Positions 16,263 through 22,245 of a DNA stretch of 64,000 nucleotides are shown piece after piece. A program made the position numbers and the translations under genes. This DNA is from Escherichia coli (GTDB lineage Bacteria; Pseudomonadota; Gammaproteobacteria; Enterobacterales; Enterobacteriaceae), in assembly GCF_016026235.1 (NCBI RefSeq), contig NZ_CP065613.1; one strand, written 5' to 3'. Under the pieces are notes generated by a model. That model made no database searches. It had not been told where the DNA came from and saw only the letters and a program-made list of their open reading frames with translations. Within the stretch, counting starts at the first letter, position 1, and each line of letters starts with the position of its first letter.

Positions 16263-17688
16263 TAATGCCAGTCAGTTAAGCAACTGACTGGCTCTTTTTC
16301 GGGGCTGTGGGGTATTTCCAGGGCCTCTCCTTTACCACTCTCGGGAAGGCCCTTCCCCTTCTCGTCGGTAATTTCACAAGTTGTCCCATACTTGCAAGAT
16401 CGCGCATCAGCTCCGGTATACGTCCCGGTGAAGCGCCCTGCAATGTCATCAGCATTCTCATCACCATTCCGCATGATTCTGAGAAACTCAGTTGATTCGG
16501 CCAGTAACCTTTCAGATGTTCCGCCATTTTAATCATCTGATATCTCACCAGATTATAAGCCAGTAAGACACCCTACAGCTCTTGCTCCACAAGCTCCGGC
16601 TTTTTACTTCTCAGCGTCAGCCTGCTCAGTTGCATCGTCTGTTTTATCTCCCTGTATCCCAGTTCGATTTCCCAGCGATGACTGTACAGATCCGCCATTT
16701 CTCCTCCGGGGAAGCGCATGGCGTCCGTCATCGACGTCAGCAGATGGCAGACTTTTCCTTTGCGCGTCACGGTCAGCAGGCGGGCTGTCACTTCATTTCC
16801 CAGTCCCGGCCACTTTTTTCGTGCCTGCGGGCTGGTTTTCAGCTTCACCAGATGATCGCCTTTACCCAGTTTTCTGAGCTCTTCATATTGCGCTCCCTTT
16901 CTGAGAGGTATCATCCAGTGGCGGTGTTCTCCCGCCAGGCTCCAGGCATTTAACAGTCCCAGTGAGTAATAACCTTTATCCATTAACGTCAGAGTGTTAT
17001 CGCCGGTTTGTTCTATAAGTTGCTCAGCAAGCTCATTTTCGCTGTTCTTCATCGTGCCGAAGGCTGCAGCCGTCAGCAGATGGCTGGTCAGTTCCATCTG
17101 GCAGACCATTTTGACCTGCGGGTAGAGCGCCGGGTTCCCGGCATGTGTCTGGCGGGGGAAGGCTGCATCGTTCTCTGGTGTATCCGGTGTGCGCCAGAAC
17201 ACACCATCGATGGCCAGCAGGGTCAGGCCGCACCAGTGCGGATGCGGCGTGGCGTTATGCCAGAGCTGCGCTGTTTTCGTGAACACGCGGCGGACAGCCT
17301 CACTTCCCAGGCGCTGGCGGGCCTGAATAACGGCACTGGGGGCAACGAAGGGGCGATTGCCCGGCAGCATGATGTCCAGGCGATTCACAATCTGGTGAAG
17401 AGGTTCTTTACGCTCAAGCGCCATGCCAACAATACACCAGACCATCATTTCGAGGGGAAGACGGCGCTTGCGTAGCGTTACAGTACCTGATTCGGCAAGG
17501 CAACGAGAGATGAGTTCGGGGTCGAGGTAATCCCCCAGAGAAGTCAGTGGGTTACGCAGAGAATCGTAACGGGATACCAGATCAAGAGCCTGTCCAATGT
17601 GCATAAAAAAATCCGGAAACAAGTGAGCGTTTCCGGATTCTTACACAGCCACTGGATCGGTCAACTGATCCTTAACTGATCGGCATTA
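16263..17688 (-). mobile_element. IS4 (1426 bp) flanked by a 12-bp target-site duplication cttacaaggatg
   Basis: Imperfect terminal repeats taatgccagtcagttaag / cttaactgatcggcatta; identical 12-mers at 16251-16262 and 17689-17700. Confidence 0.9.
16276..17604 (-). pseudogene. insG: IS4 transposase with an in-frame stop (TAG where Trp is expected)
   Basis: ORFs 16573..17622 and 16276..16548 are in the same frame, separated by a stop at 16573-16575 (…LVEQEL* then GVLLAYNLVRYQ…). Confidence 0.8.
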
Positions 17689-20953: not shown

Positions 20954-22245
20954 TGAGGGATCCCCAGAAAATTTAGTAAACCATTATCATATTGGTATAC
21001 CGTTGCTGTAGAACTTTCAGCCCTGCGTCAAGTGACAGTGTGTTTAGTATGAGTGGAGAATGTCGAATCACATTCTCCGCCAGTTTTAATAACGAGATGA
21101 CTCGCCTGTGCTTCACTGTATTTGCCTGATATTTATGATGTATCCCTTTGTTTTCCAGGCTGAAACCGCTTAACCACATAATGATACTGGCTAATGTTGC
21201 GATCAGACTCAATACCGTGACCCGCCCGGATGAATGACTGGCACCAAACCGTAGTCCAAATCCCCAGCGAGGATTTTTTTCATCCCTGAAATTTTGCTCA
21301 ATTTGCATTCTACGGCTGTATAATTTCATTACCTGTTTTGGCGAGAACTCAGTACTGTTTGTGAAAATAAACCATGGTGATTTCCCGGCAGTACGAGCTT
21401 TAGCCGTCACCGATGGTCTGGTTGCTCTTTCCTTCGAGCGTTTAAATCTACGACCTTTAGGCTTACTTTTATAAAGATAAAAATGCCCTTCATGTTGTGC
21501 ATTTTTATCTCGACCCAGCAGGCCTTCACCTAAATAAATTGCTGTCGTTGATGCTTTTGTGCCTGAGTCCGACACCTTTTCCCAGCCATTACCAACATTG
21601 TAATAATGATTGCCCAGTACCCGGCAAATATAGGTCCAGCCACGGGAGCGGAGCTGTTGGAACCATCGCCCCTGAAAACCGGCATCTGTAATAACAATGA
21701 CATCAGTCCCGGGGGAAAAGCACTCAGCAAGCGATTCCAGAAAACGCTCATGTACATCTGCATTCGCTGTCTGTGATGATGGAACGACACAACTCATCAA
21801 CGGTAAAGAACGCCCGTCACATGCCAGGCTTGCCCGCAAAAGCTGAAAACGAGAGGCATGATAAGCACTCCAGTCAATGAGTATCACAACACGAGACATT
21901 CCCCGCGTAATCTTTTGGGTAATTCGCTGAAAAATGGTGGAAACCTCATTTTGCAAATGTCGATTCCCCAACAGTCGATCCACCCGCTTTATTTTGTTTT
22001 TAACTGATGCCGTACCGGTTAAATGACGCCCGATACTGGTAAGTGTGAGGGAAGCGCCATTTATTACAGCATTAGTTGCGTCAATCAGTGATTTTTGACG
22101 GTAAAGATGCAAAGGGGCCAGTATGTTGTTAAGGAAATTTTGGCATAATGAACGTGCAGGCATAGTGGTGATCTCCTTGAAATTGTTAGCACAATCAATT
22201 AGATCACATCTCACTATGCCTGTCTTGTTTTCTGGGGATTCCTCA
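20954..22245 (-). mobile_element. IS4-family, IS10-like insertion sequence (~1.29 kb) with a 10-12-bp direct repeat
   Basis: Terminal inverted repeats tgagggatcccc / ggggattcctca; flanking repeat ggcgaaaatccc at 20942-20953 and 22246-22257; exact element name not recognised. Confidence 0.75.
20973..22163 (-). CDS. IS10-like DDE transposase
   Basis: Start at MPARSLCQNF (22163) behind AAGGAG; carries the IS4-family Y-x2-R-x3-E-x6-K signature (YSRRMQIEQNFRDEK) and IS10-like blocks (KRVDRLLGNRHL, FQANTVKHRRV). Confidence 0.75.
   Translation of the reverse strand: MPARSLCQNFLNNILAPLHLYRQKSLIDATNAVINGASLTLTSIGRHLTGTASVKNKIKRVDRLLGNRHLQNEVSTIFQRITQKITRGMSRVVILIDWSAYHASRFQLLRASLACDGRSLPLMSCVVPSSQTANADVHERFLESLAECFSPGTDVIVITDAGFQGRWFQQLRSRGWTYICRVLGNHYYNVGNGWEKVSDSGTKASTTAIYLGEGLLGRDKNAQHEGHFYLYKSKPKGRRFKRSKERATRPSVTAKARTAGKSPWFIFTNSTEFSPKQVMKLYSRRMQIEQNFRDEKNPRWGFGLRFGASHSSGRVTVLSLIATLASIIMWLSGFSLENKGIHHKYQANTVKHRRVISLLKLAENVIRHSPLILNTLSLDAGLKVLQQRYTNMIMVY

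Follow-up and report, generated by a model that had tools for sequence, protein, structure and literature searches.

Probable sequential disruption of two tandem molR-like genes upstream of yehI by IS4 and ISEc60 in enteroinvasive Escherichia coli clade 1

The window analyzed in this study is a 64,000-nucleotide stretch of Escherichia coli contig NZ_CP065613.1, which belongs to enteroinvasive E. coli (EIEC) clade 1. It carries three tandem paralogs on the same strand 3' of metG (11946-13988), namely gene 1 (14129..19367), gene 2 (19380..23716) and yehI (23726-27358). Genes 1 and 2 are molR-like genes, each of which is split by a different insertion sequence (IS), and the features of the locus are listed in Table 1. 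In the Pfam analysis of the intact gene 2 protein, a WGR domain (PF05406) was found at residues 7-69 (1.3e-17) and a DUF4132 domain (PF13569) at residues 734-919 (1.8e-51). WGR and DUF4132 were also recorded in the Pfam tables for the fragments of gene 1, so both genes were of the WGR-DUF4132 (MolR/YehI-like) type. Given this domain layout, both insertions part the N-terminal WGR portion from the C-terminal DUF4132 portion. The 5' fragment of gene 1 was colinear with the intact gene of E. coli BR1220 (protein WP_001215584.1). The first-pass annotation of this DNA had described yehI as intact, and its uninterrupted frame agreed with that description. In the NCBIfam search, no family was found for yehI, yehK or yehM.

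Table 1. Features of the disrupted molR-like locus, with positions given in the window.
Feature	Position	Strand	Remarks
Gene 1 5' fragment, molR-like WGR-DUF4132 paralog, codons 1-711	14129..16262	+	In-frame join with 17701-19367 gives a 1266-aa ORF (open reading frame)
Left IS4 target duplication copy, 12 bp, CTTACAAGGATG	16251..16262	.	
IS4, 1426 bp, transposase gene on the minus strand	16263..17688	-	99.9% identity and 100% coverage against RefSeq-annotated IS4
Right IS4 target duplication copy, 12 bp, CTTACAAGGATG	17689..17700	.	
Gene 1 3' fragment	17701..19367	+	DUF4132 in Pfam table
Gene 2 5' fragment, second WGR-DUF4132 paralog, codons 1-524	19380..20952	+	With WGR
Left ISEc60 target duplication copy, 10 bp, GCGAAAATCC	20943..20952	.	
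ISEc60, 1294 bp, IS4 family, probable IS10 subgroup	20953..22246	-	100% identical to RefSeq-annotated copies
ISEc60 transposase, intact, 396 aa	20973-22163	-	NF033591, 360.5 bits
Right ISEc60 target duplication copy, 10 bp, GCGAAAATCC	22247..22256	.	Single copy in ATM460 and BR1220
Gene 2 3' fragment	22257..23716	+	With DUF4132
yehI, intact 1210-aa DUF4132 protein, no WGR	23726..27358	+	Start 9 bp past gene 2

The element in gene 1 was identified as IS4, and the exact repeats on its two flanks bore out the earlier reading of an IS4 with a 12-bp duplication that splits the gene. Its terminal inverted repeats, which have TAATGCC... ends, matched at 16 of 18 positions. The duplications of other IS4 copies measured 11-13 bp, and a range of 10-13 bp has been reported for the IS4 subgroup (PMC2266710 Table 1). 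The transposase matched NCBIfam NF033592 with 279.6 bits. It was observed that a TGG->TAG nonsense change (T at 16574; stop at 16573-16575) divides the transposase gene of the window copy into ORFs of 349 and 90 amino acids; intact IS4 transposases have 442-448 amino acids, and the window copy loses about the last 90 residues. The Y-2-R-3-E-6-K motif was present and the TAG stop lay 17 residues beyond it, so this copy was not counted as having an intact DDE transposase. The nonsense change was common to EIEC strain ATM460 and was missing from all seven other IS4 copies compared; it was also the sole difference between the window IS4 and the copy on the EIEC plasmid pCFSAN029787_01. Because the transposase is truncated and IS4-family transposases are cis-acting, the window copy is probably non-autonomous and fixed in place, as far as its sequence tells.

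The element in gene 2 had been described as IS10-like. The insertion is real and the element probably belongs to the IS10 subgroup, but IS10 itself was rejected as its identity, since the transposase was only 36% identical in amino acids to that of IS10A (BLASTP E=5e-76) and the element measured 1294 bp against 1328 bp; the element is ISEc60. Twelve of the first 13 terminal nucleotides matched those of IS10A, and comparison of the ISEc60 and IS4 transposases gave no significant similarity. ISEc60 showed the ends, the size (1200-1350 bp) and the transposase homology of the IS10 subgroup, whereas its duplication read 10-11 bp against 9 bp for the subgroup. Its inverted repeats matched at 18 of 19 positions, and the ends CTGAGG...CCTCAG were found in all six copies compared; therefore, the boundaries are best set at 20953-22246 with a duplication of 10 bp. 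Five copies had this length and the sixth had 11 bp, and it is possible to read the duplication as 9 bp if one invariant flanking base is counted within the element. The boundaries given in the first pass (20954-22245, with a 12-bp repeat) fit the window copy but fail for one other copy (L019), so they were not retained as a general description. Of the 5426 complete E. coli genomes, no more than 14 had a full ISEc60 copy, and EIEC strains and their large plasmids were among those listed. As a separate observation, E. coli FDAARGOS_943 (NZ_CP065615.1) had ISEc60 in at least 38 places, compared with one in most matching genomes, an unusual degree of expansion for so rare an element.

To reconstruct the uninterrupted genes, each element was excised in silico together with one repeat copy. 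Gene 1 was restored to 3801 nucleotides (1266 amino acids) and gene 2 to 3033 nucleotides (1010 amino acids), and both frames were open, indicating that the frame was kept outside each IS as had been claimed. The flanks rejoined exactly on excision, as in simple transposition. The search for empty sites in related genomes was also successful: the 7259-bp empty-site sequence of E. coli BR1220 agrees with the reconstruction exactly at both junctions and differs from it by 5 mismatches, and its two genes are annotated as intact; ATM460 has an empty ISEc60 site. In the three-way protein alignment, the IS4 insertion point fell after gene-1 codon 711 (between IAYKD and AVN), and the ISEc60 point fell after gene-2 codon 524 (between YPAKIP and PLP), which aligned to gene-1 codon ~792. 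The two points, at alignment columns ~805 and ~886, respectively, were 81 gene-1 codons apart, and the IS4 site lay inside a segment of ~255 amino acids of gene 1 that is gapped in gene 2. The proposal that the two elements struck an equivalent point was thus contradicted, and adjacency to the conserved FYQxPLW block held for ISEc60 but not for IS4.

The distribution of the two insertions across isolates was then used to order them. No genome with the double insertion was found among the 5426 complete E. coli genomes, and IS4 of any kind in gene 1 was found in only 4 of them. An exact-protein look-up of the two IS-truncated products located the double insertion in the NCTC contig UGFA01000005.1 (100% identical, 21.6 kb) and in the drafts LSGI-LSGM, and an IS4-only state was found in JAALAC010000003.1 (strain ATM460). 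ATM460 has been described as an EIEC strain of serotype O143:H26, phylogroup E and EIEC clade 1 that carries an IncFII Shigella virulence plasmid (PMC8354535). Its identity to the window was 99.97% over 4129-20953 and 100% over 22247-27585. It shares the IS1 at 9069-9836 and the gene-1 IS4, whereas its gene 2 is intact and the ISEc60 site is a single uninterrupted TACCCAGCGAAAATCCCCCC with one GCGAAAATCC copy. Because ATM460 carries the IS4 but has an empty ISEc60 site, IS4 arrived first and ISEc60 later, in a sub-lineage. The two hits were therefore independent, as first proposed, being made by unrelated IS4-family elements with ATM460 as the intermediate state. ISEc60 was 100% identical on EIEC plasmids, and these plasmids, or their hosts, presumably supplied both elements. 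Directly 5' of the ISEc60 duplication, window position 20942 differs from ATM460 (L006 ~16811) by a synonymous G/A change (CCG/CCA).

The background of these genes is itself variable. A tandem of genes 1 and 2 (at least 80% coverage) was present in about 309 of the 5426 complete genomes, and most genomes have a single gene of ~3.8 kb. The synonymous divergence (dS) between alleles reached 0.76 in the middle of gene 1, compared with 0.08 in metG, and the conserved DUF4132 half starts exactly at the YPAKIP block. Judging from these sequence comparisons, the locus upstream of yehI is a mosaic, with a recombination boundary at the block that bears ISEc60. When K-12 (L016 2475-6270) and strain 100181 (L028) were compared with genes 1 and 2, an array of one or two genes was seen, with central segments that are unrelated between alleles. 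Previous studies have reported that the K-12 molR promoter is activated by BglJ-RcsB (PMC3950696) and that yehL and yehM, which adjoin an intergenic H-NS binding region, are up in hns/stpA mutants (PMC3686432).

Taken together, these results make it very probable that two separate cut-and-paste transpositions sequentially inactivated the two tandem molR-like genes in EIEC clade 1, as a case of ordinary IS-driven decay. The comparisons show that IS4 entered gene 1 at a site with the A-run and T-run arms favoured by IS4, duplicating 12 bp, and that its transposase nonsense codon was acquired later; ISEc60 then entered gene 2 in a sub-lineage, at a site flanked by GG..CC as in its other targets, duplicating 10 bp. 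In the proposed course of events, the losses would not have been purged, the accessory genes being dispensable in the EIEC lineage; target preference would have set the position within the genes, and relaxed selection would have let the insertions persist. Gene 2 may have become worthless after the death of gene 1. The frame of yehI is kept, but its expression may drop, as two elements now separate it from the promoter upstream of gene 1.

The dispensability of these genes is supported by the local decay of the region (yehC/yehD lost to IS1 and mlrA lost to a prophage) and by independent lesions in EC24, UTME-1, DEC5B, MB46, JNQH497, the SCPM strains and K-12. EC24 has an IS1 at nucleotide 1273 of gene 1 and a nonsense change at codon 372 of gene 2, and UTME-1 combines a nonsense change at codon 243 of gene 1 with a frameshift in gene 2. 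In DEC5B, gene 1 is stopped by a nonsense change at codon 764, and its gene 2, which is annotated in two fragments yet reads as an open frame of 1010 codons, was not scored as a lesion. The single upstream gene of K-12 is split into yehF and the yehH pseudogene. In these four strains yehI is intact. Gene 1 is intact in MB46, where a nonsense change stops gene 2 at codon 505 and yehI is fused to yehM by a deletion (L034, 10885-14859) that joins the 3' part of yehI to yehM, with yehK and yehL lost. Genes 1 and 2 and yehI were all intact in six other sampled strains.

Several results weigh against a reading of simple decay. The dN/dS ratio (nonsynonymous to synonymous divergence) between intact alleles was 0.25 for gene 1, 0.06 for gene 2, 0.15 for yehI and 0.017 for metG. 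Ratios of 0.06-0.25 indicate that the genes are functional where they are kept, and general relaxed selection, for which dN/dS would be near 1, was rejected. Genes 1 and 2 are thus not generally neutral, and on these ratios any relaxation must be lineage-specific; of the relaxed selection proposed in the first pass, the part supported is that in particular lineages, as seen in the lesions of EC24, UTME-1, DEC5B, MB46 and K-12. In addition, the comparison genomes used for the lesions were a small sample that was partly picked for visible disruption. The chance that at least two of three IS in the ~35.8-kb backbone strike the 6.8-kb gene pair was calculated as ~0.10 by simple arithmetic, so the double insertion alone says little on selection in either direction.

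We also considered whether the genes simply hold unusually good targets for IS4-family elements, with selection playing a minor part and the block that codes for YPAKI-PLP-FYQ forming an AAAA...TTTT pseudo-palindrome. This explanation is possible, though we hold it only tentatively. Target preference as such is real: eight IS4 sites, among them both of those in gene 1, have AAA(A)-N3-(11-13 bp duplication)-N3-TTT(T) in common, and a 'spectacular apparent insertion specificity' in the target arms has been described for some IS4-subgroup elements (PMC2266710). The gene-1 site of the window IS4, at nucleotides 2123-2134 of the gene, is also occupied by IS4 in JNQH497 and JNQH498, where the orientation and the 12-bp duplication agree with those of the window. 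The IS4 of JNQH497 differs from that of the window at 12 of 1426 positions, so the reuse of one site by another IS4 variant upholds part of the insertion hotspot suggested earlier. In SCPM-O-B-12142 and SCPM-O-B-7615, IS4 lies elsewhere in gene 1, at nucleotides 2372-2382, with the duplication CCCCACTGCCC inside the YPAKIA-PLPG block; the gene-1 counterpart of the ISEc60 site of gene 2 is ~10 bp away. The strict motif AAAA-N15-19-TTTT is scarce, occurring at two places in gene 1 (the SCPM site and one other) and in gene 2 only at the ISEc60 site, and the density of the looser motif AAA-N17-19-TTT in gene 1 was 2.3 times that of the backbone. However, half of the independent lesions do not come from IS4-family elements (IS1, four nonsense codons and a frameshift), the six ISEc60 copies targeted GG(G)-N-CC(C) motifs rather than A/T arms, and the two window insertions, at 81 codons from each other, do not share a site. 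The coincidence at the SCPM site was spotted post hoc and would arise by chance in an estimated ~2% of cases.

The shared gene-1 site could also derive from a single ancestral IS4 insertion that reached both the EIEC lineage and JNQH497 by descent or allele transfer, the IS later being overwritten by gene conversion. The identity of site, orientation and duplication would fit such an origin, and the flanks from gene 1 to gene 2 are 99.9% identical, compared with 98.1-98.7% in the neighbouring regions, suggesting that this segment moves by recombination. Divergence of the two IS4 copies in place was rejected, because they differ at 12 of 1426 positions and their flanks at 7 of 7271 (P ~2e-8, Poisson estimate); this incompatibility leaves either an independent insertion or IS gene conversion. 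We regard the shared ancestral insertion as rather doubtful, given that a conversion tract would need to cover at least 1267 of the 1426 bp with the flanks untouched, that the flanks of JNQH497 differ at only 2 positions from those of BR1220, which has the empty site, but at 7 from those of the window, and that the window and JNQH497 have no derived single nucleotide polymorphism in common. Moreover, IS4 is known for its site specificity (PMC2266710), which was matched by the eight-site pattern. A further explanation is adaptive loss, in which inactivating the upstream WGR-DUF4132 paralogs would be advantageous in EIEC and O157-type pathogens, either as antivirulence loss or as relief from a costly module of stress or defence type; this we judge very improbable. 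Pathoadaptive gene loss is a known trait of Shigella and EIEC. The state in which genes 1 and 2 are dead and yehI is intact recurs in the EIEC lineage, UTME-1 and EC24. In lineages 2 and 3 of S. sonnei, yehM-yehL-zorO is deleted (PMC12795559). In contrast, EC24 is a human gut isolate and K-12 decays alike, and ATM460, an EIEC strain too, retains an intact gene 2. With PADLOC models at E<=0.01, no match was obtained for gene 1, yehI, yehL, yehM, yehP or yehQ, and an annotation of these genes as anti-phage defence was dropped. It is likewise improbable that the YPAKI-PLP-FYQ block, at the junction of the variable N-terminal and conserved DUF4132 parts, is a shared hotspot of IS4-family elements and that, separately, paralog loss with retention of yehI has been convergently selected in invasive and O157-type E. 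coli. If true, a shared hotspot or selected loss would suggest that the molR-yehI-yehLMPQ (MoxR/vWA/SWIM) cluster carries out a costly function. This cluster has been linked by other work to DNA-damage regulons: in Deinococcus, loss of DdrO by depletion induces WGR and DUF4132 genes, and molR has been assigned to the LexA regulon (PMC8533742).

Other features were observed in the surrounding window. At 9069-9836, a 768-bp IS1 (GGTAATG...CATTACC) stands in place of ~864 bp of JNQH497 that contain the yehD fimbrial subunit gene and the start of the yehC chaperone gene, so the yehABCD fimbrial operon is also broken; this IS1 was also found in ATM460 and in the NCTC contig. Synteny with JNQH497 stops inside mlrA/yehV (start near 39197; break at ~nucleotide 68), and 39265-64000 is the structural arm of a lambda-like prophage, from terminase to tail fibre; 76% of the query aligned to phage mEp460, at ~91% identity. 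The prophage lies inside mlrA, and the curli regulator is therefore interrupted; mlrA is also the integration site of Stx1 phages in O157:H7. Just within the prophage end, at 39897-41036 on the minus strand, Rfam matches to IS009 (129 bits) and to CssrB, 'Chromosome-encoded Shigella sRNA B' (230 bits), were obtained. Between yehK and yehL, a tandem duplication of ~500 bp (27741-28238 and 28349-28849, 88% identity) that is absent from JNQH497 was found. Each copy has a match to the OrzO-P antitoxin RNA (Rfam RF02083) and a 29-codon ORF on the minus strand, and the duplication is a two-copy zor-orz type I toxin-antitoxin locus. A thiamine pyrophosphate (TPP) riboswitch lies at 3073-3169 on the minus strand, upstream of thiM, as expected there.

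The biology and the elements described here are known, and both insertions are already present in public assemblies, where they are annotated as partial genes. The insertion pair nevertheless provides a clean, ordered marker within EIEC clade 1, the IS4 being shared with ATM460 and the ISEc60 being younger, and the gene-1 site offers a natural case of one exact site reused by IS4 in two sequence variants. More broadly, the molR-like genes make up an array that varies between one gene and two and that is under purifying selection where intact and repeatedly inactivated across lineages. Accessory functions that are useful under certain conditions typically behave in this way, and the pattern may help work on the function of WGR-DUF4132 proteins.

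Compared with known systems, the window IS4 resembles the K-12 IS4 (insG; IS4 subgroup) in its length of 1426 bp, its TAATGCC... ends and the duplication range of 11-13 bp, and its target has A-run and T-run arms, as do the targets of the K-12 copy and of six other sites. It differs from the IS4 variant of JNQH497 and the SCPM strains in being the variant of the EIEC invasion plasmid, with 12 positions different. ISEc60 resembles IS10 (IS10A, and IS10R/ISVsa5 of Tn10) in its CTGAxGxATCCCC-type ends, a length within 1200-1350 bp and a single DDE transposase ORF, which are features of the subgroup (PMC2266710 Table 1); unlike IS10, it produces a duplication of 10 bp (11 bp in one copy) instead of 9 bp and has GG(G)-N-CC(C) targets. 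The disrupted genes are similar to K-12 molR (yehF and the yehH pseudogene) in their position between metG and yehI, in the N-terminal WGR domain and in being inactivated beside an intact yehI, and the K-12 gene shares 93% identity with gene 2 over its 3' 1.66 kb, beginning at the YPAKIP block. In contrast, K-12 has one upstream gene and not two, no IS is annotated at the K-12 locus, its central ~2.1 kb matches neither gene, and its match to gene 1 covers only the first ~200 bp. With respect to pathoadaptive loss in Shigella and EIEC, genes 1 and 2 differ in that they are not among the recognised loci and that non-invasive strains lose them too. The locus resembles the IS-driven pseudogenes of Shigella and EIEC, where IS4-family expansion has been documented for Shigella (PMC2266710): the window belongs to EIEC clade 1 (PMC8354535), several mobile-element disruptions occur within its 39-kb backbone, and both elements are identical or near-identical on invasion plasmids.

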